Source: Candidatus Taylorbacteria bacterium RIFCSPLOWO2_01_FULL_48_100
GTDB lineage: Bacteria > Patescibacteriota > Minisyncoccia > Phycocordibacterales > UBA10002
DNA length: 64,000 nt
Assembly (NCBI GenBank): GCA_001821135.1
Contig: MHSA01000021.1
Coordinates: forward strand, 3,956-67,955
Reading direction: 5' to 3'
The notes under the pieces were generated by a model, which worked only from the letters and a program-made list of their open reading frames with translations, did no database searches and was not told the DNA's origin. Position 1 is the stretch's first letter. The number at the start of each line of letters is the position of its first letter. Below are positions 28,371 to 61,677 of the stretch, piece after piece. A program made the position numbers and the translations under genes.

Positions 28371-28490
28371 CTCGTTAGAGACAGGTCGCGGTCGCCCGCT
28401 TCCCCATCCCGTATGGTTTAATTAACTTTGTAATAAAAATTGAACTAATACGAAAATATAAACCCTCCGCGACCGCTGTCTCTAACGGGA
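28371..28490. repeat. TIR-bounded start-codon-abutting cassette (family R4), copy A: CTCGTTAGAGACAGGTCGCGGTCGC…[AT-rich]…GCGACCGCTGTCTCTAACGGGAT
   Basis: 11-12-bp terminal inverted repeats, subterminal GCGGTCGC/GCGACCGC repeats and an AT-rich core. The inner terminus abuts the ATG (28368-28370) of the surface-protein gene. Confidence 0.65.
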
Positions 28491-28550
28491 TTCATACACC
28501 ACAAGAGTATATCACTGGGGGCGTGCTTATAGACACTGTGGATAAGTGCG

Positions 28551-29237
28551 TTATTTCAGCCCGAGCAGATTTTTTGCAATTCGCGGCACTTCAGCGCGAA
28601 AATAGCTTTTTATATCCTCCCATGTCATGTCAAAAAAGAGCGTGGGCATAAGGTCGTTTTCCGCATCATCAAAATAAGTCATGCTTTTTATGATGTGGTG
28701 ATAGTTATGCGCCACCGTAGGATACTGACGCGGCAACTTTTCAACGACTGATTCAAGCGGCGCGACATTGTTTGCATACCAGTACAAATCCACAAAATCG
28801 CGCTTGCGTCCGCGCTGGCTCATTGCGATAATTTTCATTACGGCGATGTCGTCTTTATCAAGAACGGCAACCGCCCCATATTTCAATGGTGGCACCACAG
28901 GGACAAAAAATGGATATGCGATAAAACTAATTTTTGCTTTACAAAGCGTCCCGTACACCGTTCCTTCTTTTACGATTTTGCCCTGCCAGATGCGATTGTC
29001 TGGAAAATGCCGTGTTATTTCGGCTGGAGCGAAGGTTTTCTCTTGCGTAAAGAAATCAAGGTCAACCGATTGCCGATGCCCAACTTGGAGCGCGAGCGCG
29101 GTTCCGCCAGCAAGATACCATTTTTCTTCTTCAAGCCAGGATTCTTTGCGCGCATACTCAAGAGCTTTTTGCGTTGACCGCGGAAGCGCTTCAAGTTTTG
29201 GCGTCCATTCGTTCATGTTGATAGCATTAAATTCCAA
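28551..29237 (-). CDS. Predicted nucleotidyltransferase (Pol-beta-superfamily minimal NTase motif; AbiEii-like toxin candidate)
   Basis: YLAGGTALALQVGHRQSVDLDFF fits the hG[GS]…DhD NTase signature. It is paralogous to 31035-31652. Its start overlaps the small upstream ORF. Confidence 0.4.
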   Translation of the reverse strand: MEFNAINMNEWTPKLEALPRSTQKALEYARKESWLEEEKWYLAGGTALALQVGHRQSVDLDFFTQEKTFAPAEITRHFPDNRIWQGKIVKEGTVYGTLCKAKISFIAYPFFVPVVPPLKYGAVAVLDKDDIAVMKIIAMSQRGRKRDFVDLYWYANNVAPLESVVEKLPRQYPTVAHNYHHIIKSMTYFDDAENDLMPTLFFDMTWEDIKSYFRAEVPRIAKNLLGLK

Positions 29238-29452
29238 AACGAGCGGGTGGCGGGGAAAAGTCCGCGCGAACGATCGACTACATCGCGTATAAGCGCGTGG
29301 TTATAACGATTCCACATCCAGCGCACTTCGTTGTCATCGCCAAAATCCAAAATCCGCTCAATGATATAGCGCGCGTTTTTTTCAATGTCAATCGTCTTCG
29401 GGTCCACATCCCAAAACAGCGATTGGCGAAATGTGATTTGTTCATTTTTCAT
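29213..29452 (-). CDS. Small 79-aa protein paired with the NTase (candidate antitoxin/partner)
   Basis: Overlaps the NTase start by 25 nt. Paralogous to the 30755-31045 product (shared pattern …W..D…D.DK….II…….G…E.RW….Y…IR…). Confidence 0.3.
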   Translation of the reverse strand: MKNEQITFRQSLFWDVDPKTIDIEKNARYIIERILDFGDDNEVRWMWNRYNHALIRDVVDRSRGLFPATRSFWNLMLST

Positions 29453-29651
29453 ACCCCCTATTATACCATATTTCCTGTGGACAACTCGGTTATAGGCGGT
29501 TGCTTTTTTATGATGTGTGGGATAGTATGAATATGTCGGTTACAGCAGATTTCCCGAGACACCGTTATTTCAAGCCGTTTTCCGAACTACCGCGCGATTA
29601 GCAATTAAACTTTGGCTTATATTACTTACCTTTCAGGCGACAAAGCGTATT

Positions 29652-30680
29652 TTGCGTTCTAACCTTTCTGTAAAGGTTCTTTTTGTTGCCACTGTCTTTT
29701 TTGTTTTTGTAAGTTTACCGCTGGCTGTTGTGCACGCCAGCGTTTTTTCTTTTTTAGAAGAACTAATGTCTCCAAAAGTAAACGCACAAGATTCGCGGGA
29801 AACAGCGAACGGCAATTCGCAGACCATTGAACTGTTGCGCTCCGCGCTAAACTCCGACCCGAACCCGGCGAAGGGCGGCGGAGATATTTCAATTGTCGGA
29901 GGTGCCGCACTTCTTCCCGAGTCAGGTCCGTCTGGAACGATTGCAGATATTTCAGTAGGAAATGTGCATGGCTCTATTAGCGTTTATACCGTGCGTTCGG
30001 GCGATACGCTCTCGCAAATTGCAAAAATGTTCGGCGTGTCAGTGAATACGGTTGTGTGGGCAAACAATATCAAAAACGGCGTTATCCGCCCCGGCGATTC
30101 TCTCGTCATTCTCCCTATTTCCGGAGTACAGCATATCGTAAAGAAAGGCGATACGGTTGCAAGTATTGCAAAAAAGTATAGCGCGGACGCGCGAGAAGTC
30201 GCTCTCTTTAACAATCTTTCCGAAAACGCAAAGCTTGCCGTTGGCGATGAAGTGACTATCCCCGACGGCGAAATGGCGTTCCCCGCATCGTTTGCGCCCG
30301 CGCCGCGCGTGCGCGGCGCGGGCGGCCCAACATACGAAGGGTATTACCTGCGCCCGATTCTCGGCGGGCGGAAGACACAAGGGCTTCACGGCTACAACGG
30401 AGTAGACCTTGCGAGTTACTACGGCGCGCCGGTGTTTGCGTCAGCAGAAGGCGAAGTGATTGTCGCGCGCTACGACGGTTGGAACGGCGGGTACGGCAAG
30501 TATATTGTTATCTCGCATCCGAACGGCACGCAGACGCTATACTCCCACCTTTCGCAAGTCATTACCTATGTCGGCAGGCAGGTTCCGCGCGGCGAGCTCA
30601 TCGGCAACATCGGTTCTACCGGCAACTCCACCGGCCCTCACCTCCACTTTGAAATCCGCGGCGCGCGAAATCCGTTTTAA
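29652..30680 (+). CDS. Secreted LysM-domain M23-family metallopeptidase
   Basis: Signal peptide. Two LysM motifs (YTVRSGDTLSQIAKMFGVSVNTVVWANN; HIVKKGDTVASIAKKYSADAREVALFNN). C-terminal M23 signature …GVDLAS…HLHFEIR. Confidence 0.8.
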   Translation: MRSNLSVKVLFVATVFFVFVSLPLAVVHASVFSFLEELMSPKVNAQDSRETANGNSQTIELLRSALNSDPNPAKGGGDISIVGGAALLPESGPSGTIADISVGNVHGSISVYTVRSGDTLSQIAKMFGVSVNTVVWANNIKNGVIRPGDSLVILPISGVQHIVKKGDTVASIAKKYSADAREVALFNNLSENAKLAVGDEVTIPDGEMAFPASFAPAPRVRGAGGPTYEGYYLRPILGGRKTQGLHGYNGVDLASYYGAPVFASAEGEVIVARYDGWNGGYGKYIVISHPNGTQTLYSHLSQVITYVGRQVPRGELIGNIGSTGNSTGPHLHFEIRGARNPF

Positions 30681-30754
30681 GGAAGTTGGCGTTACGCATT
30701 ATGATTGAGTGAATAAAAAGATTCCGAGAATAGAATATGCTATAATATTTACAT

Positions 30755-31045
30755 ATGAAAGAGAACAGGGGCGTTTTTATACAAAACAAATTACCCAATT
30801 CATTTCGTCCGCTTTTGTGGTCCTTAAAATGGGAGGATGTGGATGTTGACAAAGATAAAAGTGATATTATTCTCGCCGCTGTTAATGAGGGAACTCTTGA
30901 ACAATGGCGCTGGATTATTAGAATGTATGGGCGGGAAGCAATACGGGAAACGCTTGCGAATCGTCTTGCTACAGAATTTCATCCAGAATCCGGTAACTTA
31001 GCAAAAGTTGTCTTTGACTTGCCGAAATTATCATATGCACGATGA
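30755..31045 (+). CDS. Small 96-aa protein paired with the second NTase (paralog of 29213-29452)
   Basis: Same conserved pattern as the other small partner. Directly precedes and overlaps the second NTase ORF. Confidence 0.3.
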   Translation: MKENRGVFIQNKLPNSFRPLLWSLKWEDVDVDKDKSDIILAAVNEGTLEQWRWIIRMYGREAIRETLANRLATEFHPESGNLAKVVFDLPKLSYAR

Positions 31046-31652
31046 GGTTTTAACAAAGTCCGCGGCGGCGCTTCTTCCGTCAATTGTTCGTTTTAGTGAT
31101 TTCTACCTTGCCGGCGGTACGGCGCTCGCCTTACAGATTGGACACAGGCGTTCGGTTGATTTTGACTTGTTTTCAGAAAAAACGCTTCCCGCAGAATTGC
31201 TCCCGCGTGTAAAGCGCGTATGCGCCCCACTGTCAGTTGTTGTTACATATAGTTCTACGGAACAACTCAATGTTCTTATCGGCGGCGTTAAGACGACCTT
31301 TTTGTTTTTTCCTTACCCGGTTATTAATCCGCCAGTCGCGTATCGCGGTATTTCAATCGCGAGCATACGCGAAATTGCCGCAATGAAAGCATTTGCGGTC
31401 GGCAAGCGGCTCTCGTTCAAGGATTATGTTGATTGGTATTTTATGTTGAAAGAAAAATATGTAACGCTTCCAGATGTTATAGCTCTCGCTCAAAAGAAAT
31501 TCGGCGGCGATTTCAATGACCGGCTGTTTCTCGGGCAACTCGTGTCGCTTGCCGATGTTCCTATTCAGTCAATAGATTTCTTGCGCGCCGCGGTTGATAA
31601 AAAAGAAATCACGGAGTTTCTTGAGTATTCTGTAAAGACATTCGCACTCTAA
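31035..31652 (+). CDS. Predicted nucleotidyltransferase, paralog of 28551-29237
   Basis: YLAGGTALALQIGHRRSVDFDLF. The start was moved to MHDEV… because the track's upstream Met overlaps the partner gene. Confidence 0.4.
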   Translation: MHDEVLTKSAAALLPSIVRFSDFYLAGGTALALQIGHRRSVDFDLFSEKTLPAELLPRVKRVCAPLSVVVTYSSTEQLNVLIGGVKTTFLFFPYPVINPPVAYRGISIASIREIAAMKAFAVGKRLSFKDYVDWYFMLKEKYVTLPDVIALAQKKFGGDFNDRLFLGQLVSLADVPIQSIDFLRAAVDKKEITEFLEYSVKTFAL

Positions 31653-31653
31653 C

Positions 31654-32973
31654 GGGATGAAACAAAAACTATCGTTTGCGGTTTCTTTTTTATTGTTAAT
31701 TTCTCCTCTTTTTACTTTCGCGCAAGATGGGCAAAGGAAGCCCAATGCGCGCAAAGAATAGCAGACGCAACTATACTTCAACAAAAAATCTCCGATATAT
31801 CTTCTAGTATTGGTGTGATTGACCGCCTGCTTGATTCTTTGCAAATCACCAAAAAATACACCGATTCGCTCACTAAACTTGATGGCGCATTGTTTATGCT
31901 CGTTCCTTTTGGCGGAGAACAATCACAAAACTATGAACACGCAAATCGCACCGCCATCAAGTGTGTACAAAACCGTGGGGGACCAGTGCCTATTGGTACA
32001 AGTACATACGCAAAAGGTGTTTTGTACACGGAAATAACCGCACCGCAACGGCAACTGGTAACAAAACTCAAAACAGATGCTTCAGCAATTACTACTTATG
32101 TCAGCGAAGAGTTGGAAAAGTCAGAAAATGGGCAGTTGGGAATTGGCGCGACAGTATCTGTTGTAAGAAAAGTGGTTGCGCTTAAATCTGCCGGTGAGAA
32201 AGATTTACTGCCGATTAATCTTGAAGCACTTGCAAAAAATCACTCTTCGCTCAAACCGTAGGAGGGTTTGTCCATCAGTTTTTCAGCAGACGGCAATACT
32301 TTTAATATTCCGAGCGCATTGCGTACCGCACTCGCGCCTGTATTATGGCTCATGGGCATCTCGCTCGGTTCGGAGCCGCTGTCCGGAGGCATTCTTTCTT
32401 TTGACAGCGAAACATTCGGCGTTTTCGTTCCAGAAACAGTTATGCTCAATGAATTTCGTTCTACTATCACTGCGAAGATAAAGGATTTTCAAAATAAAAA
32501 ACAAAAGTATCAACAGATACAAAACACACTGCGGACACAACTTGCCGGTTTGGAAAAGAGCTCTTATCAGTGCGACGCTTCTGTGCTGACGGCGCAGGCG
32601 GAGATTGAAACTATCATCTCAAATGATGGCGATGCGCCTTACCAGGACGCACCGACTTATGCTGGTAATAATGAGCCGCCTGTATCTAACATAAGCGATA
32701 TCGCAAACGAATCCATTTTTGACACCGTATCCGTGAACCTCAAAGTGAACGGTCAAGACGGAACCGTAACCGTTTCGCCAGGTAGCCGTATTGTCCCGAG
32801 TAGGTGCAACCAGATGCAAGGCAAATTGGTCGCGCAATGACCTTAAACTCTCAGGCACGGTTGCCGGTCGCGTCAGTCGTTCCGTAACCGTTAAAGTCGC
32901 TTGCATAGACGCAGACGGAAACCGCGCGGATGATGAAGTGCGGGTGAATGTTGTAAGTGAAGAAATATCATAA
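31654..32973 (+). pseudogene. Fragmented secreted-protein gene (signal-peptide ORF + at least three pieces in different frames); its C-terminal domain is paralogous to the N-terminus of 26385-28370
   Basis: A signal peptide MKQKLSFAVSFLLLISPLFTFAQDG runs into a stop at about 31757. ORFs at 31815-32261, 32268-32840 and 32791-32973 follow in shifted frames. The last two together read …FDTVSVNLKVNGQDGTVTVSPGSRIV…RCKANWSRNDLKLSGTVAGRVSRSVTVKVACIDADGNRADDEVRVNV, matching …FETVSVDMKVNGQDGPVTVEKGSRIV…RCRGNWSKNDIKLSGTVAGRISRSAVIKVACINKEGERDDDSVVVNV. Confidence 0.4.
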
Positions 32974-32977
32974 ACAT

Positions 32978-33523
32978 CTAGATATTAAATCCTATTTTCC
33001 GTATCGGCTTTGTAGGAGGCGCAAGCAGTTGCTTGATTGCTTCAAACACCACCTTGAACTGCTGGTCGTATTTGCTTTCCAGTTTTTCTATTTTCTCCCG
33101 CAGTTCTTTGTTGGTCGCAATGAGTTCTCGCAATTTTGTAAAAGTTCTAATGATTTGTATGTTCACTTGAATGGCGCGTCTGCTATTGAGGACGCTTGAA
33201 AGCATCGCCACACCTTGTTCGGTAAAAGCATGATAACGATAGCGTTGTCCGCCATGACTTGAGGTTCCAATTTGTAACCTCAAGTTCAAGTCCGATTTGG
33301 ATGTCACAATTTGTGACTTCCAAATTTCCATTTCGCGAGCATTCAACTGAAACATAAAGTCAGCCGGAAATCTCTCTATGTTTCTTTTTACCGTTTTATT
33401 CAGATTCTTTGTCTCTGCTCCGTAAAGTTCCGCCAAGTCCTTATCCAACATAACTTTCTTTCCTCGCAACAGGAATATCTTGCCTTCAATTCTGCTATCT
33501 GGAATTATTGCTAGTGTTCGCAT
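32978..33523 (-). CDS. ORF6N-domain protein (phage antirepressor/KilA-N-like DNA-binding domain)
   Basis: N-terminal block …IFLLRGKKVMLDKDLAELYGAETKNLNKTVKRNIERFPADFMFQL… matches the ORF6N pattern. C-terminal coiled coil. Confidence 0.55.
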   Translation of the reverse strand: MRTLAIIPDSRIEGKIFLLRGKKVMLDKDLAELYGAETKNLNKTVKRNIERFPADFMFQLNAREMEIWKSQIVTSKSDLNLRLQIGTSSHGGQRYRYHAFTEQGVAMLSSVLNSRRAIQVNIQIIRTFTKLRELIATNKELREKIEKLESKYDQQFKVVFEAIKQLLAPPTKPIRKIGFNI

Positions 33524-33535
33524 GTTTTGTATTAT

Positions 33536-35113
33536 TTACTGATTGATTATTTGTTTTGGACGGTACGAAAGCGCTTCCAAAATATCGTCCTCCGTTACTT
33601 CATCGCGCTCGGCGAGGTCGGCGATTGTGCGTGCGAGTTTCATCACGCGGTGGTATGAGCGCGCAGAGAGGTCCAACCGTCGCGCGTTTGCGTTCAGCAT
33701 TCCTTTTGTTTTTTCATCAAGCGGGATTATTCTTGCAATATGTTTGGCGGGCGTGTCCGCGTTGGTCTTTGCTTTCAGTTTCGCCTTCTTAAATCGTTCT
33801 TCTTGTCGCTTCCGCGCCGCAATAACGCGCTCCCGCACTTCTTTTGACTCCGAACCATCACGCGCTTCGTCCGAAAGCTTTCCGTACTCAACGGCAGACA
33901 CTTCAATCGCGAGGTCAATGCGGTCAATCACTGGCCCAGAAATCTTCCTGCGGTAGCGCTCCGCGGCGTTAGCTCCGCAAACGCACGATTTTCCTTTTAC
34001 ACCCTTGTTTCCGCACGGGCACGGGTTCATTGCCGCAATCAAGATAAAATGCGCCGGAAAATGTGCAGAGCCCCGTGCGCGCGAAACCGAAATCATCCGC
34101 TCCTCAAGCGGCTCGCGGAGCGTGTCTATCACGCGCCGGTCAAATTCCGGAAACTCATCTAGAAACAAAACGCCTCGGTGCGCGAGCGTTGCTTCACCCG
34201 GCTTTGGAATCGCGCCTCCGCCAGTGATGGAGACATATGAAGATGTGTGGTGTGGGCTGCGCACGGGTGGGTGCGACACAATCGTATCGCGAAGCTTCCC
34301 CGCGACGGAATGTATGCCCGTCACTTCCAGCATTTCTTGAAACGAAAGCGGCGGGAGGAGCCCCGCAAACGCTTTCGCAAGCATTGTCTTACCTGTGCCG
34401 GGCGGGCCCCATAGCAGAATGTTGTGTCCGCCCGCCGCCGCAATTTCCAGCCCGCGCTTCGCGGTTTCCTGTCCTTTGATATCCGACAAATCAATTTGCG
34501 CTTCGGGTGGTTCGTCGGGAATCGCGGTCTCGTGGACTTGCTTCAGCGCGCGTTTTTTTACAAATGGTGTCTCATCTCCGTCTCCCGCAAGGTCTTTGGG
34601 TATAAGGTGTGCGATAACGGCAGTTAAAGTCGGTGCTGCGTACACTTGTATCCCCCGAATAAGCGCGGCTTCGCGCGCATTCCCTTGGGGTACAAATACT
34701 TCTTCAAAATCGCGCTTGCGCGCTTCTTCTACAAGAGGAAGTACACCCGCGACTGGTCTTAGCTCTCCGTCAAGCGAGAGTTCTCCTAGAAAGAGTTTCT
34801 TTTCAGGCGCAAAGCGAATTGCACCTACCGCTTTGAGGTACGCGAGTGCAACGGGCAAGTCAAACGCAGGTCCTTCTTTCTTGAGGTCTGCAGGTGCGAG
34901 CGAAATCGTTACTTTTTGGTTTTTCTGCTTTGGCGACTTGAAGCCGCTATTCTTTATCGCTGCAGAAACGCGGTCGCGAGATTCTTCAACCGCTTTGTCT
35001 GGAAGCCCTACGACGGAAAACGAATGGAGCCCGCCAGCAATGTCCGCTTCAACAGATATGAGATGGGGAGTGAGCAGATGCGTTTCGGCACTCCATACTT
35101 TGGCGAAACTCAT
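33536..35113 (-). CDS. comM: Mg-chelatase-like AAA+ protein YifB/ComM
   Basis: 525 aa. N-terminal Lon-like domain, Walker A LLWGPPGTGKT, C-terminal Mg-chelatase subunit ChlI pattern. Confidence 0.85.
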   Translation of the reverse strand: MSFAKVWSAETHLLTPHLISVEADIAGGLHSFSVVGLPDKAVEESRDRVSAAIKNSGFKSPKQKNQKVTISLAPADLKKEGPAFDLPVALAYLKAVGAIRFAPEKKLFLGELSLDGELRPVAGVLPLVEEARKRDFEEVFVPQGNAREAALIRGIQVYAAPTLTAVIAHLIPKDLAGDGDETPFVKKRALKQVHETAIPDEPPEAQIDLSDIKGQETAKRGLEIAAAGGHNILLWGPPGTGKTMLAKAFAGLLPPLSFQEMLEVTGIHSVAGKLRDTIVSHPPVRSPHHTSSYVSITGGGAIPKPGEATLAHRGVLFLDEFPEFDRRVIDTLREPLEERMISVSRARGSAHFPAHFILIAAMNPCPCGNKGVKGKSCVCGANAAERYRRKISGPVIDRIDLAIEVSAVEYGKLSDEARDGSESKEVRERVIAARKRQEERFKKAKLKAKTNADTPAKHIARIIPLDEKTKGMLNANARRLDLSARSYHRVMKLARTIADLAERDEVTEDDILEALSYRPKQIINQ

Positions 35114-35217
35114 AATACTAATATACGAATTATACTAATGATACGAATGACTACTAATGCTTCGTAATCTTTATTCGTATCCATTGGTAGATTGGTATTC
35201 ATTTGTATATTGGTATT
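35114..35217. repeat. R2 palindromic element, full copy; upstream of the comM start, and supplies the TAA stop of the dksA-like gene
   Basis: aatactaatatacgaattatactaatgatacgaatgactactaatgcttcgtaatctttattcgtatccattggtagattggtattcatttgtatattggtattta. Confidence 0.75.
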
Positions 35218-35582
35218 TATGCATTCATATGCTTCTTACAGGTCGTTGCCGCTGGGTTCGCCTCTAGGCGTTCGTTCTCTATAATCTCTTTCCCCTTTTC
35301 GCAGAGCCCATAGGTGCCGTTTTTAATCCGTTCAAGAGCCGCCTGTACTTCGTTGTAGCGAATTTCCAATTGTTTAAGAATTGCTGTATTACCCTCAAAT
35401 GCTTCTAAACTGTCGGCGAGTTCTGTTTCGTCTGCGGTGAGCGTATCCATTTTTTCCGGAGTCGCTTGCCAGTCGCTCGGATTGTCGGGGTTTTTGCGCC
35501 CAACGCCTTTTAATTCCGCTTCAACAATCGCAAGTTCCGATTTTAATTTTTCCTCAAAATGTTTTACTGTTTTTTTGTCCAT
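35217..35582 (-). CDS. DksA/TraR-family zinc-finger-like protein
   Basis: 121 aa with coiled-coil N-terminus and a C-terminal …GTYGLCEKGKEI… region. Resembles DksA/TraR, though the Cys4 motif is degenerate. Confidence 0.45.
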   Translation of the reverse strand: MDKKTVKHFEEKLKSELAIVEAELKGVGRKNPDNPSDWQATPEKMDTLTADETELADSLEAFEGNTAILKQLEIRYNEVQAALERIKNGTYGLCEKGKEIIENERLEANPAATTCKKHMNA

Positions 35583-35626
35583 AGTCGTGTAAGAGTATTA
35601 TAACAAGAAATAATATGTCAAGCACC

Positions 35627-36340
35627 TTACTGGGGCGCTGCAACTAACTTGTCCATTATTTTCTCAAATGAATCCTCGTCGTTTGTTATTATTATTGTCT
35701 TTTTATCTGCAAATCCGTAAAGTAACAATGGTTTATCGTCTGTGCCGATAAGTTCGCGAATATCGCGGTTTCTAATGGTACGGTCTGTAAAATTCACCCC
35801 TCCTATTGCCTCGCCAAACAAGGGCCCAATATCGCCAAGTATTGTTTTTTCCCACTTTAACATTCCCGCAAGCGCGGTTTGGTAGTAATTTGTTTTAAAA
35901 ACAAGGAACGCGCGGTTGGTTGGAAGCCCGCGAAGCCCAAGCGCAAATTGCGGCTCCAGCGCACGAACAAAACCACCTTCCGTGCTCGCATTTAAAAGCG
36001 ACAAAAATTCTTGCGCCGTGAGCGCGCGTTCCATCGCTTCTCCTTCAGCGCTTCGCGCGGCTTTTGTTGGCGTAATGAGTGTGAAAGACGAAAGCGCGAG
36101 CGCGGCTTCGCGCTCTCGCGCAAAAGCAGTTATAAAGGTATCCCGTACAAGACGGGACGAGTCAAGCGTTTTTTCTCTATCTGCAAGAATTATTTTTGTC
36201 ATTCCGGAAATGGTCGGTGTATTTTCGGCGGCAGGCAAATTAGAAAAATACCAATATCCGATTCCAATCGCTCCAGCAAGAAACAAAAACACAACGCTCC
36301 ACAACACAAGCGAACGCGCGCTTTTACGCATCAGTTCCAT
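35627..36340 (-). CDS. Single-pass membrane protein, hypothetical; start set at MELMRK because the upstream in-frame extension runs through an R1 repeat
   Basis: TM LVLWSVVFLFLAGAIGIGYWYF followed by a ~200-aa soluble domain. The track ORF extends to 36685 through the R1 copy, which I judge unlikely to be coding. Confidence 0.4.
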   Translation of the reverse strand: MELMRKSARSLVLWSVVFLFLAGAIGIGYWYFSNLPAAENTPTISGMTKIILADREKTLDSSRLVRDTFITAFAREREAALALSSFTLITPTKAARSAEGEAMERALTAQEFLSLLNASTEGGFVRALEPQFALGLRGLPTNRAFLVFKTNYYQTALAGMLKWEKTILGDIGPLFGEAIGGVNFTDRTIRNRDIRELIGTDDKPLLLYGFADKKTIIITNDEDSFEKIMDKLVAAPQ

Positions 36341-36354
36341 TTGCGGTAAAGGAA

Positions 36355-54156: not shown

Positions 54157-54540
54157 ATTTTAATAATTTATTAACGACTAATTTTTAACAAATGTATTAT
54201 ACACACACACGCCTTTCCTGCGCAACCCTTGCGCCAAGCCGCTTTCTGTTTCATGGCGATAAGAAACGAGACCTACCACGCGTCTTTGTTAACGCACGGA
54301 CATCTACCATCAACATCTTGTCTTTTGTTGCATATAACGCATTTTGTTTTTGCCCATTCAATCGGCATATAGAGAGTAATTATTTCCGATTTCTTAAAAC
54401 ATGCTACACTCTTTTTGCGGACTGTTTTTAATGTTTCACCCATTGTTTGTTTGTGGTGTGCGATGTGCATGTTGTTAGTATATCAAAGAACACCGCACAA
54501 AACATAAATGACCACCCACAGATTGATTTTTGAGTACATA

Positions 54541-54577
54541 AAACGGCTCAGCGCGCGCTGAGCCGTTTTTGTTTATT
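54541..54577. terminator. Bidirectional intrinsic terminator (aaaacggctcagcgcgcgctgagccgtttttg)
   Basis: 12-bp GC-rich stem flanked by an A-run and a T-run, about 100 nt downstream of the hppA 3' end. Confidence 0.55.
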
Positions 54578-54676
54578 GTCTAATTCGCGCGAATTAGCAC
54601 ATATACATTGGTATAATAAAAGCCCGCGCTGGAGGGCTTTATGCGTGTTCGGACACGGGAGCTGTGCGAGCGATTT

Positions 54677-56674
54677 TTAAATCAAAAATGGTATCAAAAG
54701 CAGCGCGACAATATTTAGTATTTTAATCATTGGGTTAATGGCGGGACCTGCCGTATCTTTGTACGGGTCGCCGACGGTGTCGCCCGTAACCGCGGCTTTG
54801 TGCGCGTCGCTACCCTTGCCGCCATAATTTCCTTTTTCAATATATTTCTTTGCATTGTCCCACGCGCCGCCACCCGAGGTCATTGATATTGCGACGAAGA
54901 GTCCGGTGATGATTGAGCCGACAAGAAGTCCACCGAGTGCGGCTGGTCCCAGAGTGAAACCAACAATAATCGGCGCGGCGACGGGGATGAGCGCGGGGAG
55001 AATCATTTGTTTAATTGCGGCGGCGGTTACTATATCCACACATTTTGCATATTCTGGTTTGCCTGTGCCTTGCATAATTCCAGCAATCTCGCGGAACTGT
55101 CGCCGCACCTCTTCCACCACCTTGCCAGCGGTCTTGCCGACCGCCTCCATCGCAAGCGCGGCGAAGTAGTATGGTAGAAGCCCGCCTATGAATAGACCAA
55201 CAAGTACATTTGGGTCGCCGAGCGCGAACACAACTTCTGCGCCGAGTGAGCGCAAATCCTCCGCGTACGAAGCAAACAATACAAGCGCGGCGAGCCCCGC
55301 CGAGCCGATGGCGTAGCCCTTGGTAACGGCTTTCGTAGTATTACCGACAGCGTCAAGCGCGTCTGTAACTTCACGCACGCTTTCTGGAAGGTTCGCCATT
55401 TCCGCGATGCCTCCAGCATTGTCGGTAATCGGCCCGTACGCATCTATTGCAATAATAATTCCGGCGAGCGATAACATCGCCATTGCCGCAACGGCGATGC
55501 CGTAAAGCCCCGCAAAGTAGTACGCGCCGAGAAGCCCTGCGACAATCACAAGGAGCGGGAGCGCGGTCGCCTTCATAGAAATCGCAAGCCCTTGGATGAT
55601 GTTGGTGCCGTGTCCAGAAAGAGATGCGCGCGCGATGGACTGCACCGGCTTATGTGCTGTACCTGTGTAATATTCGGTAATCACGACTAGTGCGACAGTA
55701 ACGATGAGTCCGATTAGCGCGGAGAAGAAAAGATTAAGCGATGAATAGACGCTGTTCGCGCCCATAATGTAAGAAGTGATTGGGTAGAATACGATGGCGG
55801 ACAAAATGCCGCTGACCGCAAGTCCTTTATACAACGCGCCCATAATGTTTTTGCTTTGCGCGCCAATTCTCATAAACCAAGAACCAATGACGGACGCGAT
55901 AAGCGCGGCTCCGCCGATGGCGAGCGGGTAGAGAATTGCCGCAGAGCTTCCGGGAAAGATTAGCGAGCCGAGGAGAATTGCGGCAACTGAAGTAACCGCA
56001 TATGTCTCAAACAAGTCCGCGGCCATTCCGGCACAGTCGCCCACATTGTCGCCCACATTGTCGGCAATCACCGCAGGGTTGCGCGGGTCGTCTTCTGGAA
56101 TACCCGCTTCCACTTTGCCGACAAGGTCGGCACCGACATCTGCGGCTTTCGTAAATATGCCGCCGCCAAGCCGCGCGAAAACGGAAATGAGCGATGCGCC
56201 GAAGCCGAGCCCGATAAGTGCTTTAATGTCGCCAGTTGCCGCGTAAAAACCGGCGACACCAAGTAGCGCGAGCGCGGCGACGAGAATACCCGTTACCGAG
56301 CCGCCTTTCGCGGCGAGCGCGAGCGCGGGCGCGAGGCCGCCGCGCGCCGCTTCCGCAGTGCGCGCGTTCGCGCGTACCGATACGAACATACCGACATAGC
56401 CGGCGAGCGCTGAGAGGAACGCGCCTACTAGAAATCCTAGCGCGGTTGTCCAGTTAATCGCAAAACCGATAATTACAAAAAGAATTGTGGCGATACCGGC
56501 AATCGTTTTGTATTGGCGGTTGAGGTACGCATTCGCGCCTTCCTTAACCGCGTTGGAAATTTCCTGCATCCGCGCGTTTCCGGGGCTTGCCTTAAGAATG
56601 CGCGTGGTCAAAAACACTGCGTAGATAATGGCGGCAACTGACGAACTGATGGCGAATAAAATGATTGGGTTCAT
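54677..56674 (-). CDS. hppA: Membrane-bound proton-translocating inorganic pyrophosphatase
   Basis: About 665 aa polytopic protein with H+-PPase motifs (…[16 protein letters not shown]…, …DNVGD…). The start was moved to MNPIILF because the track's first 14 codons are a translated R4 repeat. Confidence 0.9.
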
Positions 56675-56793
56675 CCCGTTAGAAGCAGGTCGCGGTCGCG
56701 GTACCGTTTGCTGCATAATGTTATAACGACCTTACTTTGTTAAATAATTAAACATCTCTACCATTAGTAAGCGACCGCGGCTTCTAACGGGAT
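56675..56793. repeat. R4 TIR-bounded cassette, copy B, abutting the hppA ATG (CCCGTTAGAAGCAGGTCGCGGTCGCGGTAC…GCGACCGCGGCTTCTAACGGGAT)
   Basis: Terminal inverted repeats cccgttagaagc / gcttctaacggg. AT-rich core taatgttataacgaccttactttgttaaataattaaacatctctaccattagtaa. Confidence 0.7.
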
Positions 56794-56825
56794 AAATAAT
56801 ATCGGGATTGTAGCAGAAAAGACAG

Positions 56826-56855
56826 GACGCGCAATGCGTCCCGTTTTTTGTTTTT
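56826..56855. terminator. Intrinsic-terminator-like hairpin just downstream of nusA (ggacgcgcaatgcgtccc + T-run)
   Basis: 7-bp GC stem followed by ttttttgttttttt on the + strand, with an A-run on the opposite side. Confidence 0.45.
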
Positions 56856-58046
56856 TTATTCTGTTTTTGTTTCTGTGGGGACAGGTTCAGCTTTTTCTGT
56901 TTCTGCCGTGGCGGGTGGCGGCTCTGCGGGTTTGTTTAATGATGCAATATCAATTTTCGCGTTCGTGAGGCGGGCGGCGAGGCGCACATTCTGCCCGCCG
57001 CGGCCGATGGCGAGCGACTGCTGGTCGTCGGCGACAATTGCTTTCACATGCCGCGCGGCTTCGTCCAGCACTTCCACAGAAAGAACTTTTGCTGGAGAAA
57101 GCGCTTCGGTTACAAACTTTTTCAGATTTTCGAACCACTGAATGATGTCTATTTTCTCGCCACCGAGTTCCGACATCACAGTTGAGACGCGCACGCCTCG
57201 GCCGCCGACGAGCGACCCAACCGGGTCTATATGCGGGTCGTTGCTCGCGACGGCAATTTTAGCGCGCGAGCCGGGCTCGCGCGCGATGGCTTTAATTTCC
57301 ACCGCGCCTGACGCGACTTCGGGTGTTTCCTGTTTAAACAGTGCTTCAATGAACTTCGGCGCGGCGCGCGAGAGCCGCAGGTGCACGCCGCGCGGCGTGT
57401 CTTCTACGCGCATAAGGTACGCGCGCACGCGCTCGCCCTGTCGGTACCGCTCGCCCGGAATCTGCTCCTCGTATGGGAGAATACCGGTTGCGCGGCCAAT
57501 ATCTATGAAAATCGCGCCGCGCTCAATTCGTTGGACAGTACCCGATACAATCTCGCCCGCGCGCGTGCCGTATTCGCTGAGCACCGACACCTTCTCCGCT
57601 TCGCGGATTTTCTGAATCACGACTTGTTTGGCGGTTTGCGCGGCAATCCTACCGAAGTCGCTCTTGGTTTCCAGTGGGAAAATTATTTCATCTTCCAACT
57701 GCGCGCCTTTCTTAATTTTGCGGGCGTCTTCTATGAAAATATGGTGTTCGGAGTTGTAAAAAATTCGATCGTCGTCTGCAGCGCGTTCAATTTCCTCGCC
57801 ATCTTCGTTTTCAGAGCGCACAATCACCTTCGTATCATCCACAACTTCCTTAACTTGGAAGAATTCCACTGCGCCGCTTACTGCGCTAAACTTCGCGCGC
57901 ACAATTTGGCCTTTCTTGCCGTACTCTTTGCGGTACGCCGTCGCGAGCGCGGATTCAATCGCTTCAATTACTTTCTCGCGCGGTACTCCGCGCGTTTCTT
58001 CAAGTTCTGTAAGTACCGCGTTGATAGTTTTTAAATCAAAAAGCAT
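56856..58046 (-). CDS. nusA: Transcription termination/antitermination factor NusA
   Basis: 396 aa. N-terminal NusA domain, S1 domain and two KH domains (…GGRGVRVSTVMSELGGEKIDII…). Confidence 0.9.
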   Translation of the reverse strand: MLFDLKTINAVLTELEETRGVPREKVIEAIESALATAYRKEYGKKGQIVRAKFSAVSGAVEFFQVKEVVDDTKVIVRSENEDGEEIERAADDDRIFYNSEHHIFIEDARKIKKGAQLEDEIIFPLETKSDFGRIAAQTAKQVVIQKIREAEKVSVLSEYGTRAGEIVSGTVQRIERGAIFIDIGRATGILPYEEQIPGERYRQGERVRAYLMRVEDTPRGVHLRLSRAAPKFIEALFKQETPEVASGAVEIKAIAREPGSRAKIAVASNDPHIDPVGSLVGGRGVRVSTVMSELGGEKIDIIQWFENLKKFVTEALSPAKVLSVEVLDEAARHVKAIVADDQQSLAIGRGGQNVRLAARLTNAKIDIASLNKPAEPPPATAETEKAEPVPTETKTE

Positions 58047-58049
58047 AAA

Positions 58050-58207
58050 GTATATATACTAATCTACTAATGATACGAATTATACGAATGTCTACGAATA
58101 ATATACTAATCTGCGAATGGTACGAATATACGAATGACTACGAATAAAAAATGAATCTTATTGGTAGTCATTTGGAGATTTGGTATGTATTCGTAATATT
58201 GGTATAA
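58050..58207. repeat. R2 palindromic element, extended full copy directly upstream of the nusA start
   Basis: tatatatactaatctactaatgatacgaattatacgaatgtctacgaataatatactaatctgcgaatggtacgaatatacgaatgactacgaataaaaaatgaatcttattggtagtcatttggagatttggtatgtattcgtaatattggtata. Confidence 0.75.
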
Positions 58208-58305
58208 AAATAGCCCGCCTTCGTGGGGCGAACTTCCACCTTAATATACACTATATATAGTATACGCGCAAGCAACAGTTATCAACATTAAGGGTGTATA
58301 CCCTG

Positions 58306-58941
58306 CTAACCCAAGTGCGCGTGATCATTCCATACCCAGAGCCACCATGGCGAAGTATTGTTTTTCTCGTCAAACCCCAGAACGGTCACGCCGGTATTTT
58401 CTGTATGAAATTTCTGAATAAATTGCTCGCATTCTTGCGCGGTCAGTTTTTCACCAAAAACAGCGTATGCGACAATTATCCTCAAAAAGAAACCGTGAGT
58501 AATAACAAGCATGTTTCTCTCTGATTTTTGTTGTAAATATCTTAACGCTTGACTAGCGCGCGTCTTTAAATCATCAAAATTTTCTTCATCGGAGAATCGG
58601 AATCCCGAAACTGTGAAATTCTCCCGAATTGTTTTTTCCGCATCCAGTGCTTTCGGGTCATTTTTCAAGACCCCAATCTGCTCCTTTGGCCTACGACGCT
58701 CTATAAAAAGATCCGAATATTCAGCCGATTTTTTCAATCGCGCCAAAATTATTTTCGCTGTTTCTACTGCGCGCTTCATAGTACTTGAAATAATAGAATC
58801 AATGGAAAGTTTCTCGCAGCGCTCCGCAATAATTTCAGATTGCATCAGTCCTTTTGGCGTCAATGAAGAGTTTTGTCCTTGACGAACAGGACCTGTATTA
58901 CCCTCACTTTCCCCATGTCTAACGAAATAAATCTTTTTCAT
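58306..58941 (-). CDS. Histidine phosphatase superfamily protein (phosphoglycerate-mutase-like)
   Basis: N-terminal RHGESEGN catalytic motif, about 210 aa. Confidence 0.7.
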   Translation of the reverse strand: MKKIYFVRHGESEGNTGPVRQGQNSSLTPKGLMQSEIIAERCEKLSIDSIISSTMKRAVETAKIILARLKKSAEYSDLFIERRRPKEQIGVLKNDPKALDAEKTIRENFTVSGFRFSDEENFDDLKTRASQALRYLQQKSERNMLVITHGFFLRIIVAYAVFGEKLTAQECEQFIQKFHTENTGVTVLGFDEKNNTSPWWLWVWNDHAHLG

Positions 58942-59249
58942 ATTTACATCATATCAAAAACCATCTTTATTCAAAATCTATAAATGTTGACAGATAATCT
59001 ATGTTGGTGTTGTATGGATATGGAAATATCAAACCTCTCCCTACCCCCCAATACGAAGGGTAAGGAAAATGAATTGATGCACAGTTTTTTGACAATAACT
59101 GCACGAGAAGACCAAGAAGAGCGTTAAAAACAGTGCTTTTCTTAATCCTCTCGTGTGAGAGGATTCCTTTAAAAATGAAGTGGCGCTTAACAAGTAGCCC
59201 TTCGTATTTAAAGGTGGGGAGAACAAAAAAACAAATCGAGAGGAAAAAA

Positions 59250-60393
59250 ATGAAAGATCCAATACTTCTGCAATTAACAAGTGAACAATACTCAATTCTT
59301 CACGAAGGATTAAAGTCGGTTGTCCATTACCGCAAATCAGGTTTAAGCGTCAATCATATCATTGGGTGTCCACTGGATTGCGCGTACTGCATTCGTCATC
59401 AAAATAATAATTTTGATATGAAACAGCCGCATCAATTGATGTCTGATGAAGAGGTGGTGAATATGTTGGTACAGCACCGCTATTTCATACCGCACAAGAC
59501 ACCGCTCCAAATCTTCAACAAAGCCACCGACCCATTTTTAGGCGCAGTCCGTCCGCATACTCATTGCATGTTGTCTTTACTAGACAATAGAGGTTTGATG
59601 AACCACATCCTTGTCATTACACGGTATGTGGTTACCGAGGAAGACATGCGAAAACTTAATCAACTTCAACACTTGCGCGTTACTCTCCTTATTACCTTTA
59701 ACGGTCTAAAAGACAGTCGGATTGAGCCGTTGTCAAAAAAGATAACGCTTAAATCAATTGAAGTTGCTTGTCGCCAAAAAGGTCGCACTAAAGTTATACT
59801 ATAATTGGCGTCCGATTGTTCCTGGTTGGAATGATGACGAAGAAACTGTGTGTGGCGTTCTTGAAGCGGCGCGTGGTTGTGATGCGGTCGCATTCACCGG
59901 ATTATTTCACCGCAAAGAACAGCACGAATTCTTTGCAAATATCGGTATCGCGCCACCTTACAGTGAGATACACCGCAGAAAGATACTGCCGCAGGACTTG
60001 GAAAACAACATCTTGAGAATGTATAAAGAGTGCGGACTTACCGTGCCGCTCTTTAGAAAGACATCATGCGCCGTTGCTTTCGCGCACCACGAATCTGATT
60101 ACAACGGTCATTACGGAGTTCCCGATATTTGTGACATCTGTCCGACTGATCAAGTTGCGCGTTGCGCGCAGTCGCACAAAAAACCTTCGGAAGAAGAATT
60201 CGCCGAGCTCCTTCAACGCTACGGCTATGATACTGTGTTTAAGGTTGGCGATGGGCATGTAGAGACAGTTGGTTTGAGTGAAGAACAAAGGTATCACCTG
60301 CAACACACGCTTGGATTTCAGATTTGGGATGTAAAATACCCGCATTTGAAGAACCAACACGGTCGAGCACCCGTCGGCTATACAAAACCATAA
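59250..60393 (+). pseudogene. Radical SAM protein (CxxxCxxC; SplB-like) apparently split by a +/-1 frameshift near 59795
   Basis: ORF 59250-59804 contains GCPLDCAYC (CX3CX2C). ORF 59758-60393 continues in another frame (…KVIL|YYNWRPIVPGW…), contains further Cys motifs (…DICDICPT…), and overlaps the first by 47 nt. Together they are about 380 aa. This is either a frameshifted pseudogene or a sequencing error. Confidence 0.4.
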
Positions 60394-60397
60394 AAGT

Positions 60398-61006
60398 ATG
60401 AGAATACTAACAAGTGAATACACAAAAAAATGGACCGAGTTCGAATATGCCGTTTTGGACCTTGAAGGAACCGGCGCACAGCACAGAGAAAATGAGGGTA
60501 TTGTAGACATTGCCGGAGTTTTGGTTAAAGGCGGAGCAGTAACACATGAAAGTTTTAACCATTTGCTTAATCCGGAAATTTCTATACCATCTTTCATTTC
60601 TAGGATTCACGGAATCACCGACAAAGATGTGCAGAATAAACCGAAACTAGCCGAAGTAAAAAGTGGTATTCTCACATTCTGTGAAGGTCGGATACTTGTT
60701 TCCCATAACGCTCCAGTTGAGCGCAGGGTGTTGCGGTTTCGGTTGCCTGAATACGAACCGCCGATCATCTTTGACACACTGAAAATGTCTCGCACGGCGT
60801 ATCAGGAAGAAAAGAAACACAGTTTAGATGAAATGATCAAACGGCTAAATCTTGAGTCAGTTCTTTCTAGCGCCACGGATTCCAAAAGGCATTCTGCGTT
60901 CTATGATGCGTTGGCTACTGCGCACGCATTTGTAGTGTTGGCGAATCGTTTGGTTGGAAAAGAAGGGGTGTTGCAAGACCTCTTAAAATACAACATACGC
61001 GATTGA
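60398..61006 (+). CDS. DnaQ-like 3'-5' exonuclease (DEDDh family)
   Basis: Exo motif I AVLDLEGTG (DxE). Exo III-like HSAFYDALATAH. Confidence 0.65.
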   Translation: MRILTSEYTKKWTEFEYAVLDLEGTGAQHRENEGIVDIAGVLVKGGAVTHESFNHLLNPEISIPSFISRIHGITDKDVQNKPKLAEVKSGILTFCEGRILVSHNAPVERRVLRFRLPEYEPPIIFDTLKMSRTAYQEEKKHSLDEMIKRLNLESVLSSATDSKRHSAFYDALATAHAFVVLANRLVGKEGVLQDLLKYNIRD

Positions 61007-61150
61007 ATCTTCAACAATACTTACACACAACACCCGAACGGTTCGTTCCACTCGGGTGTTTTTTGTTGTTTGTTGTGCGGTAGTTATCAACAGAGAGCGC
61101 GAACGGCACAGGCGCACATTCCGTATATAATATAGAATGCAGTATGGAGT

Positions 61151-61276
61151 CCCGTTAGAAGCCGCTTCGCTACGGAAACGCTTTATCCAATCATATTATG
61201 TATAAAGCATTATCAACTAATTTATACAGCATAAACGCTTATATAAAAATGCGAAGCGTTTCCTGCTTCTAACGGG
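61151..61276. repeat. R4 TIR-bounded cassette, copy C, abutting the ATG at 61277
   Basis: cccgttagaagccgcttcgctacggaaacgctttatcc…[AT-rich: tataaagcattatcaactaatttatacagcataaacgcttatataaaa]…atgcgaagcgtttcctgcttctaacggg. Confidence 0.7.
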
Positions 61277-61549
61277 ATGGAGCGCGGAACAACAAAAACA
61301 GCGACTGCGGGTGCGGCGGTTTTAGTCGCCGTTGCGCTTGGTGCGTGGCTCGTTTTTGCTTCGCGGGAGAGCGCCGGCTCGCCAGCGCAAAACGGTAACC
61401 GCGCGGAGATTTTGCGGCTCACGGAGCGAGGGCGGCTTTCCGACGGCGAAAAGAAGCGCGTTTTTGAGCTCTTGTCGGGAGAGCAATTTCGCGAGTACGA
61501 GTTTAGCGCGCGCGAGCGCGCGCTGATTCTGAAGGCAATAGGCGGGTAA
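61277..61549 (+). CDS. Small N-terminally anchored protein (90 aa), member of a three-paralog set
   Basis: TM AAVLVAVALGAWLVFA followed by the helical …LSDGEKKRVFELLSGEQFREYEFSARERALILKAIGG. Confidence 0.4.
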   Translation: MERGTTKTATAGAAVLVAVALGAWLVFASRESAGSPAQNGNRAEILRLTERGRLSDGEKKRVFELLSGEQFREYEFSARERALILKAIGG

Positions 61550-61561
61550 TGGAATATGGAT

Positions 61562-61677
61562 CCCGTTAGAAGCCGCGGTCGCTTCTAGTGGTAAGAAAAT
61601 TATCAAAAATATAATAGGTCGTTAAAATAAATTGTTGCAGTGTAGCGGTTCCGCGACCGCGACCTGCTTCTAACGGG
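61562..61677. repeat. R4 TIR-bounded cassette, copy D, abutting the ATG at 61678
   Basis: cccgttagaagccgcggtcgcttctagtgg…[AT-rich]…gcggttccgcgaccgcgacctgcttctaacggg. Confidence 0.7.

Follow-up and report, generated by a model that had tools for sequence, protein, structure and literature searches.

The 64,000-nucleotide stretch analysed here (positions 3,956 to 67,955 of contig MHSA01000021.1 of Candidatus Taylorbacteria bacterium RIFCSPLOWO2_01_FULL_48_100; hereafter the window) contains four copies (c1 to c4) of a palindromic element of ~116-126 bp, each with its gene-proximal terminus directly abutting the ATG start codon of a gene (4/4). We show that this element, made up of one variable base followed by CCCGTTAGAAGC ... 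GCTTCTAACGGG, is inserted immediately 5' of the ATG and duplicates the ATG together with 1-3 further bases. Its nature as a non-autonomous palindromic mobile element, similar to MITEs (miniature transposable elements with inverted repeats), is well supported, and it is real, widespread and apparently undescribed. As an explanation of the whole, we favour with moderate confidence a start-codon-inserting element of this kind that also brings a leader open reading frame (ORF) translationally coupled to the gene; judged from frame statistics and the modelled RNA fold, this translational mechanism is plausible.

Structure and distribution of the element

An earlier note on this DNA, made from the letters alone, had described four copies with 11-12-bp terminal inverted repeats (TIRs), subterminal GC-rich inverted repeats, an AT-rich core with TATAAT-like hexamers and an ATG adjoining the proximal terminus. 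All four lie where it had placed them (Table 1), at 28371-28489, 56675-56791, 61151-61276 and 61562-61677 when the added junction base is not counted, and in each the right terminus is followed by ATG. The TIR is perfect and 12 bp long in c2, c3 and c4 (CCCGTTAGAAGC / GCTTCTAACGGG), while c1 has a variant TIR (CCCGTTAGAGAC / GTCTCTAACGAG when read in the direction of the gene), whose two arms show compensated changes and 1 mismatch. The subterminal repeats are real as well, and on their gene-proximal arm they include a 4-nt bulge, ACCT or ATCT, that is asymmetric. Aligned in gene orientation, the four copies share the termini, the subterminal GC-rich stem and the 4-nt bulge (ACCT) on the proximal arm; the AT-rich cores are not conserved. 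Allowing at most 2 mismatches, GCTTCTAACGGG has 11 matches in the window, compared with 4.55 +/- 1.97 in shuffles.

Each window copy is predicted to fold into a long hairpin (-46 to -52 kcal/mol, z-scores -4.3 to -7.3). A covariance model recovers them with E = 6e-18 to 2e-12, the sense strand scoring 25-50 bits above the antisense strand; as the model was trained on 112 elements including these four, the match is partly by construction. Over the 64 kb, its sole further match beyond c1-c4 is a fifth, 66-bp member of the family, which the earlier note had overlooked. Scanning the window against Rfam 15 gave 4 tRNAs at the gathering score and nothing for the elements; the best sub-threshold match over c3/c4 reached 22 bits against a gathering score of 57, and the E-value mode also gave no family.

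To see how widespread the element is, one genome per prokaryotic species was scanned with the pattern CCCGTTAGAAGC-N(80-110)-GCTTCTAACGGG, requiring both arms to be exact. The pattern occurs in at least 118 loci (referred to below by L numbers), which among the matches listed are almost all metagenome-assembled genomes (MAGs) of Patescibacteria, or Candidate Phyla Radiation (CPR), from many classes (Saccharibacteria, Paceibacteria, Nomura-, Kaiser-, Levy-, Taylor-, Jorgensen- and Moranbacteria, Microgenomates and others), with a few labelled as other phyla. The element counts given below (n = 130, with 112 abutting an ATG) are drawn from these listed matches. The window itself was matched in two Rifle-aquifer Candidatus Taylorbacteria assemblies (GCA_001822615.1 and GCA_001822765.1). 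A viral origin is not supported, as the same termini gave 0 matches in the viral collection IMG/VR. Full-text searches of the searchable library for the element sequence, MITEs of CPR, leaderless genes in CPR, and MITEs together with translational coupling returned no description.

The canonical form is 104-132 bp long, with a peak at 113-118 bp, and many of the 8-kb loci hold 2-4 copies. About 6% of the window genes are preceded by an element. Across the loci, the genes that follow an element serve housekeeping functions of all sorts, among them ssb, rpmJ (L36), rpmE, dnaA, topA, nrdR, ruvX, murG and a gene for an rpoD-type sigma factor, while type IV pilus genes are the most recurrent neighbours among the element loci. 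A functional theme of membrane proteins, considered on the basis of the window genes, fails across the loci, where targets are of all kinds.

The search pattern is symmetric and silent on the flanks. An ATG nevertheless directly abuts 112 of the 130 elements, in many genomes and next to the same bulge-bearing arm with one exception, so that the non-random placement claimed in the earlier note holds across genomes. In the oriented cases the gene-side arm is the one with the (C/T)CTGC bulge; among ~113 ATG-abutting elements, a single copy (L003:1888-2005) has the opposite orientation. The junction CGGG-ATG is exact in 86% of elements, and the base at +4 is a purine (ATGA or ATGG) in 99/112 targets. 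Of 28 elements with variant termini, collected separately, about 20 also contact an ATG. Within the 12-bp TIR, CCCGTTAGA forms an invariant 9-bp core, and in these 28 elements positions 9-12 show many compensated variants (AAGT/ACTT, AGAC/GTCT, AAAT/ATTT, AGGC/GCCT and others).

Target duplication and mobility

The gene-distal flank of the element repeats the start of the gene, as in ATGAAT-element-ATGAAA or ATGCAAT-element-ATGCAAT. An ATG lies 4-7 nt 5' of the element in 90/130 cases, and in 78 the flank bases past this distal ATG match the second codon of the gene (mean of 29 and maximum of 41 when flanks are re-paired at random). The earlier note had treated the MITE as the alternative to its own view, and had named target-site duplications as something that would refute that view; a direct repeat of ATG plus 1-3 nt is what the flanks hold, so the element is MITE-like after all, although its placement is far from random.

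The clearest case is c3. A metagenome contig with about 90% identical DNA (L128) carries the orthologous 90-aa gene and the same promoter, without c3. Its empty site reads GTATATAATATAGAATGCAGT-ATGGAG-CGCGG, whereas the window reads ...GCAGT-ATGGAG-T-(126 bp)-ATGGAG-CGCGG, which shows an insertion with a 6-bp duplication (ATGGAG) and one extra T. Copy c4 is also missing in L128, though the intergenic sequence is more divergent there. Among the near-identical strains L119-L127, no presence/absence polymorphism of elements was found. In one of these otherwise near-identical strains (L122), a 32-bp deletion and clustered substitutions affect the 90-aa gene downstream of c3 (window 61379-61410), so that no gene call remains at this place, while the elements on either side show no change.

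Tandem elements with a repeated target between them occur in L020, L036 and L042, the array in L042 being one that breaks the assembly. In several lineages, one and the same ssb site is occupied by elements whose interiors are unrelated, suggesting that it was hit repeatedly. The left flank of c4 (61549-61562) reads TAATGGAAT-ATGGAT-element-ATGGAG and so shows three ATGGA-like copies; the extra one could be the footprint of a lost tandem element.

About 30% of the distal ATGs have decayed (to ATA, ACG, TTG or GTG), and the frame of the distal ATG relative to the element stop is random (34:29:26). For both reasons we regard the distal ATG as a relic rather than a working part, and they rule it out as a take-off point or leaderless start for the gene. 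Taken together, the element has all structural features of a MITE apart from a known parent insertion sequence: it is small (<~300 bp), has no transposase ORF (the sole internal ORF has about 23 codons), is bounded by TIRs, shows both a target duplication and an empty site, and is present in dispersed copies.

As to what moves it, genes of the REP-associated tyrosine transposase (RAYT)/IS200-like Y1 HUH type, with YH(I/V)YNRG and HxH motifs, lie 2-6 kb from elements in 4/118 listed loci and are unflanked by them (Table 1; REP, repetitive extragenic palindromic sequence). IS200/IS605 or RAYT transposases were rejected as direct mobilisers, as the right flank of the element is gene-derived and duplicated and RAYT chemistry gives no duplication. 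A REPIN/RAYT system was set aside on similar grounds: a duplication is present, the arms are not REP-like palindromes, and the RAYT-like genes in the 4 loci are unflanked by the element. IS1380-type ends ('CC', with a 4-5-bp duplication) are what we take to be a lead for a parent insertion sequence (IS).

Could the element instead be a site that acts as DNA, such as a folded single-strand recombination site (of the attC/Xer type) or the site of a global DNA-binding protein spread by transposition, with any RNA effects incidental? The invariant 9-bp CCCGTTAGA followed by pairs that need only be complementary (positions 9-12) would fit such a site, the core resembles the integron GTTRRRY / RYYYAAC boxes, and the asymmetric bulge recalls the extrahelical bases of attC. 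Against this, the box order is reversed with respect to attC, with GTT at the open end of the stem, copies are single and scattered before housekeeping genes with no cassette arrays, a target duplication is present, and the strand-specific coding signal described below points to the RNA level. We consider a DNA-level site very unlikely. An integron attC site proper was rejected: the element has the order 5'-GTTAGAA ... TTCTAAC-3' and attC the order 5'-RYYYAAC ... GTTRRRY-3', its loop adjoining AAC/GTT, and attC sites stand at the 3' ends of cassettes in arrays, of which there are none here.

Host promoters and a leader reading frame

Boxes of the form TANNNT peak 6-10 nt upstream of the distal ATG, and many element-free genes of the window read TATAAT-N6-8-ATG with no Shine-Dalgarno (SD) sequence. 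Together, these indicate that the targets are typically leaderless or near-leaderless genes with a -10 box 5-10 nt 5' of the ATG. More generally, most window genes have a TATAAT-like box 6-9 nt 5' of the ATG and no SD sequence (for example at 29452-, 30755+, 36685-, 58941- and 7316+), a sequence pattern suggesting that leaderless mRNAs are the norm in the Taylorbacteria window. Judging from these promoter positions, the element should be transcribed from the host promoter as a ~120-nt 5' leader, with its hairpin starting about 5-6 nt from the 5' end. This retains the idea of a 5' untranslated region (UTR) module put forward in the earlier note.

The other half of that idea, a portable promoter in which transcription starts in the AT-rich core and the proximal arm serves as the 5' UTR, finds no support, as the empty and filled c3 sites share the host promoter upstream. 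The TATAAT-like hexamers of the cores do exist, at about chance level and without strand preference: -10-like hexamers within the cores number 154 in sense and 174 in antisense orientation with no positional peak, and -35/-10 pairs 20 and 13, respectively. Promoter prediction, the check proposed in the earlier note, gave consensus matches at chance level for the window elements. What speaks for a portable promoter is the AT-richness of cores with such hexamers, weak -35/-10 matches in c1, c2 and c4, and the presence, in some of the elements, of a motif resembling GTCGTTATAAT with GCAG after it; set against the strand counts and the host promoters directly upstream, identical at the empty and filled c3 sites and also present for hppA, this leaves it highly improbable in our view. 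A sigma-70 promoter cassette, which would call for strand-specific -35/-10 boxes at a fixed distance from the gene, was likewise rejected on the hexamer counts and the consensus scans.

Two further patterns were noted. A tandem array of ~9-nt units, 35-45 nt in all (cATTcGTAT aATTcGTAT cATTaGTAT ATTgGTATA), lies directly upstream of many start codons in the window (Table 1), and may be a shared operator/promoter module. A minority class of elements with non-canonical interiors is flanked as GTTGAC-element-GTTGAC (L041, L042, L084, L086, L096, L027 and L030); in L086, L096 and L030 the GTTGAC on the right can be read as a -35 box (TTGAC), since a -10-like hexamer follows it at 16-17 nt. Insertion of this class thus seems to take place at -35 elements.

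The cores differ between strands in another respect. The sense core is A-rich (A 2706, T 1884), and three motifs are biased to it: TATGAA, about 40 nt from the 5' end, is practically sense-only (24 vs 1 antisense), GTCG occurs 29 vs 2 times, and there are 48 vs 9 occurrences of GCAG, which is located about 35 nt from the 3' end. In 35/45 occurrences, the TATGA motif opens an ORF that runs to the TAA in the right TIR (..TGC TTC TAA CGGG ATG). We calculated frame statistics over the 112 ATG-abutting elements. The sense frame ending at the TIR TAA has a median of 28 open codons and at least 20 in 72/112 elements, compared with medians of 7 in the frame of the gene (at least 20 codons in 13/112) and 13 in the third sense frame (27/112), and of 11-15 in the three antisense frames (30-41/112). 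When the cores were shuffled (200 shuffles), the sense median was 12.5, and at least 20 codons were open in a mean of 29 and a maximum of 46 of 112. In the frame of the gene, a TGA some 8 codons upstream is what usually ends the open stretch, and the third frame stops at an ATGA overlap in 70/112 contexts. Open-frame length differs between sense and antisense (paired Wilcoxon p = 1e-6), and ATG-started ORFs of at least 8 codons in the TAA frame number 65 in sense and 17 in antisense. Counted per core cluster (102 mutually unalignable clusters), the signal is 64 vs 13 and 25 for the other two frames, demonstrating that it is not simply inherited from a few copies. The leader ORF starts at a median position of 41.5 and has a median length of 23 codons. 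As TAA-CGGG-ATG is built into the TIR, a stop close to the gene start, as translational coupling requires, is present in every ATG-started ORF that reaches the TAA (65-70/112).

In the predicted ensembles, the gene AUG is almost entirely paired (unpaired probability 0.05), which agrees with the start-codon sequestration that the earlier note had raised and proposed to check by RNA folding, whereas the leader AUG lies in an open loop (0.53). Pairing is possible between a GCAG(R) segment and the (Y)CTGC bulge, and L010 and L095 show a compensatory GCGGA/TCCGC, so the fold may be more complex, involving a pseudoknot or another hairpin formed locally. Among self-cleaving ribozymes, the hammerhead, twister, pistol, hatchet and HDV types were considered and rejected, as the AT-rich core lacks conservation and shows no recognisable core motif. 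By eye only, the proximal arm resembles the 3' end of 16S rRNA and the CCCG/CGGG stem the anticodon stem of initiator tRNA; neither resemblance was used. Bridging from an SD sequence to the hairpin was dropped, SD-like 4-mers upstream being rare and inconsistently positioned.

We propose the following mechanism. The leader RNA would start with the leftover AUG and fold into a hairpin of about -45 kcal/mol, the base of which buries the real AUG. The A-rich apical loop would expose the start of the leader ORF of about 23 codons, which would run through the 3' arm and stop at the UAA in the right repeat, 4 nt 5' of the gene AUG. Ribosomes translating the leader ORF would thereby melt the hairpin, terminate at the UAA and re-initiate at the gene AUG, letting a 115-bp insertion precede essential genes without silencing them. 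Such coupling would explain the orientation rule, the exact ATG junction, the A-rich sense core, the dispensable distal ATG and the tolerance before essential genes. In bacteria and archaea, termination-reinitiation is an established process at distances as short as this (PMC6728339). In class 1 integrons, cassettes lacking a ribosome-binding site (RBS) have their translation driven by a short ORF (ORF-11) that stops within the core site of recombination (PMC8876359).

Several observations sit uneasily with this account. About 40% of canonical elements, including c2 and c4, have no ATG-started ORF in the TAA frame; c4 has TTG starts in its place and c2 an ATG at 56716 that shares the reading frame of hppA. 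An independent set of 19 variant-TIR elements did not show the frame signal again (median 18 codons vs 15 antisense), and the open frame there is often the one ending in the ATGA overlap. The leader ORF is somewhat more frequent in elements with intact than with decayed flanking repeats (64% vs 44%, p = 0.06), so part of the signal could be a decaying feature of a master copy. On the DNA side, the duplication varies from 4 to 6 bp in length yet always begins at the A of the ATG, and in 128/130 elements the extra base at the distal junction is the complement of the base with which the duplication begins (T for ATG.., C for GTTGA.., G for CCATG); we can account for neither fact with a known transposition chemistry, and the purine at +4 is likewise unexplained. 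No TIR-bounded transposase ORF or autonomous partner was found in about 0.9 Mb of loci, nor in viral contigs. Finally, c2 is not a simple insertion, as relatives with 96% and 91% identical HppA have an 18-19-nt leader instead. These relatives keep the TGCTACAAT promoter, TTATTTAT and the ATG boundaries, and their leaders, ATCCGCTTCAATATCTAAT in L130:1100-1530 and AGGGATTTTAGAACTACT in L131:940-1530, differ from each other, though pieces resembling TCTAA or TTAGAA occur in them. Such leaders may have been left behind by deletion or excision of the element.

Part of this evidence would also fit a MITE that is purely selfish and plays no part in expression. The transposase would prefer ATGR, purifying selection in a compact genome would remove all other insertions, and the open frame would be an untranslated leftover of the master copy. 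The target duplication and the empty site, the purine preference at +4, the roughly 40% of copies without an ATG-started leader ORF, the lower ORF frequency where flanking repeats have decayed and the missing frame signal in the 19 variant-TIR elements are all consistent with it. It has difficulty with an open frame specific to one frame and one strand over 102 unalignable clusters, which is hard to obtain without selection, and with the near-absence of the other orientation (1 of about 113 ATG-abutting copies). It also leaves essential genes (ssb, rpmJ, rpmE, dnaA, topA and rpoD) with an AUG predicted to be buried in a hairpin of about -45 kcal/mol, and some mechanism must restore translation there. 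On balance, we think a purely selfish element unlikely.

Restoration could also come from RNA processing. If RNase III cut the ~21-bp duplex, or if another enzyme cut the stem at its 3' base, the product would be an mRNA that is again leaderless or has a short leader and begins at or close to the proximal AUG, and the element would be a removable 5' leader serving as a processing or stability module. RNase III acts on the Correia elements of Neisseria, and mRNAs of Gram-positive bacteria are stabilised by hairpins at their 5' ends. The exact CGGG-ATG junction, the preference for genes of the leaderless type and a long perfect duplex only about 5-6 nt from the predicted 5' end would suit a removable leader. 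RNase III normally does not cut at the very end of a helix, though, and neither the frame- and strand-specific ORF nor the sense-only TATGAA is explained by processing. It appears a rather improbable account.

Returning to the coupled leader ORF, a bolder version of it is that the element is a mobile translation-initiation cassette, which homes to leaderless starts in one orientation, swaps leaderless initiation for a leader ORF with re-initiation, and has been co-opted for translational control genome-wide. We offer this tentatively, as something possible that we would not expect to hold in full. If many genes per genome were wired in this way, as about 6% are in the window, it would amount to a layer of control in organisms with very few conventional regulators, and the expression of many genes could be tied to the supply of ribosomes or charged tRNAs. 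Start codons may also be targeted through a mode of recognition not described so far, in view of the complementary junction base in 128/130 elements.

Window genes, short members and known systems

The features of the window are listed in Table 1. A PF03030 match confirms the identity of HppA given in the earlier note. That the ORF caller had read through the element proved right for hppA, where public calls give 679 aa instead of the true 665 aa because the internal ATG of c2 is in frame with hppA; for the 661-aa protein, the ORF list shows no such read-through. The 90-aa and 123-aa proteins downstream of c3 and c4, described before as members of one paralog family, are weakly supported as such, with BLASTP E = 0.002 over the membrane anchor and no Pfam match.

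Table 1. Positions of the elements, their flanks and associated genes (window coordinates unless an L locus is given).
Feature	Position	Strand	Remarks
Element c1	28371..28490	-	includes extra base 28490, which pairs with the A of ATG; 73.9 bits, E = 2e-13
c1 gene, 661-aa secreted/surface-type protein	26385-28370	-	ATG 28370..28368
c1 distal copy of duplicated start	28491..28495	-	ATGAA vs ATGAG at gene, 1 mismatch
-10-like TATACT upstream of c1	28511..28506	-
Candidate leader ORF in c1, MGKRATATCL	28375..28407	-	stop is TAA in proximal TIR, 4 nt 5' of gene ATG
Element c2	56675..56792	-	upstream of hppA; 89.1 bits; no intact flanking repeat
hppA, true coding sequence	54677-56674	-	ATG 56674..56672
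Host -10 box for hppA, TACAAT after TGC	56807..56812	-	upstream of c2, past nusA terminator; same in element-free relatives
TATAAT upstream of c3	61126-61131	+
Host -10 box for c3, TAGAAT	61133..61138	+	5 nt upstream of distal ATG; identical in empty-site L128
c3 left duplication copy ATGGAG	61144..61149	+	original start-codon position, at or near transcription start
Element c3	61150..61276	+	includes extra T at 61150; 68.9 bits
Candidate leader ORF in c3, 24 codons, MYKALSTNLYSINAYIKMRSVSCF	61198..61272	+	TAA 61270-61272, then CGGG, then gene ATG
c3 right duplication copy ATGGAG	61277..61282	+	working start codon of 90-aa gene
c3 gene, 90-aa membrane-anchored protein	61277-61549	+	ATG 61277
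c4 left duplication copy ATGGA	61556..61560	+
Element c4	61561..61677	+	includes extra T at 61561; absent from L128; 95.6 bits
Sole possible TAA-frame leader ORF in c4	61632-61673	+	TTG start
c4 gene, 123-aa protein	61678-62049	+	ATG 61678
Fifth member, 66 bp	22783-22848	+	TIR CCCGTTAGAAGT / ACTTCTAACGGG
~9-nt-unit arrays	genes ending 10955, 14305, 15045, 15945, 24279, 35113, 58046	-	few bases 5' of ATG
RAYT/IS200-like genes	L024:6905-7615, L032:41-655, L069:72-737, L077:4896-5588

The 66-bp member belongs to a minor size class of 39-90 bp found among the loci, whose members with a length that is a multiple of 3 lie in frame within long ORFs. It is predicted to fold into two small hairpins closed by a terminal stem, and is read in frame as 22 stop-free codons (PVRSKEPVVPADLPTANRTSNG) within the ORF of a PG_binding_1 protein (about 22447-23391, +), where it adds 22 residues to the linker past the PG_binding_1 domain of this secreted protein. 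Comparable in-frame short copies were seen in L030, L058 and L023. At two loci (L005:4316-4391 and L064:4307-4382), ~76-bp members stand at gene starts with a strong SD sequence of the GGAGG type; this lies just inside the right TIR, 13-14 nt 5' of the ATG, and the canonical form is without it.

CPR/Patescibacteria make up a large share of bacterial diversity, and very little is known of translation start and regulation there. If one conserved element precedes a noticeable share of their genes, with ssb, dnaA, topA, rpoD and genes for ribosomal proteins and type IV pili among them, this would be a major feature of these genomes that annotation has so far missed. It already yields wrong gene starts in public records, as with hppA, and its termini offer a ready marker for true start codons and transcription units in CPR MAGs. 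Since Saccharibacteria can now be cultivated and genetically manipulated (PMC10633639), our reading of the element is directly testable in them.

Several known systems share part of this picture. Rickettsia palindromic elements (RPE) are likewise palindromic, mobile and tolerated within genes, which here applies to the short members (39-66 bp, with lengths divisible by 3 and no stops). The canonical ~115-bp form differs from them in preceding the start codon and not being translated into the host protein, as the gene frame is closed (median 7 codons). REP/REPIN sequences with their RAYT (Y1 HUH) transposases are also hairpin-forming, highly repeated, long-lived and non-autonomous, and RAYT/IS200-like genes do occur in a few of the loci (4/118). 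REPINs, however, are pairs of short REP palindromes, make no target duplication, are extragenic and flank their own RAYT gene.

Similar in construction are the Correia elements (CREE/NEMIS) of Neisseria and bacterial MITEs in general, such as ERIC, RUP and MITEAba12, which are also small (about 100-150 bp), TIR-bounded and multicopy, encode no transposase and duplicate their target. They are co-transcribed with their neighbours as a long hairpin able to alter expression, as would be expected of the present element. The target of the present element is a start codon (ATG plus 1-3 nt) rather than TA, and its orientation is near-universal. Its 9-12-bp termini are conserved across a superphylum instead of one genus, and a frame-conserved leader ORF ends 4 nt 5' of the host ATG. 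Unlike for these comparison systems, we know of no parent IS.

In the leader-peptide attenuators of ermC and cat, a short leader ORF and a hairpin hiding the downstream start are also combined, and ribosomes on the leader open the hairpin. No drug- or amino-acid-dependent stalling motif was recognised in our leader ORFs, which read through the sequestering arm and stop beside the start codon, and the present element is mobile and found before about 6% of window genes. There is also a functional likeness to ORF-11, ORF-17 and ORF-18 at attI1 of class 1 integrons and to synthetic bicistronic designs (BCD), with a short upstream ORF at a mobile-DNA junction that stops at or shortly before the start codon of a gene lacking an RBS and couples to it. 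The integron stop lies within the recombination core site, and here the TAA lies within the TIR. In the integron, the cassette comes to a fixed platform, whereas here a transposable hairpin carries the leader ORF to the gene; most leader ORFs here also have no SD sequence, and the coupling is inferred. What appears to be new is the combination of start-codon targeting through a duplication that regenerates the start, a near-universal orientation, termini conserved superphylum-wide and a built-in leader ORF. It would be, to our knowledge, the first mobile element that targets start codons and brings its own translational coupler, and thus a natural counterpart of the synthetic bicistronic design.

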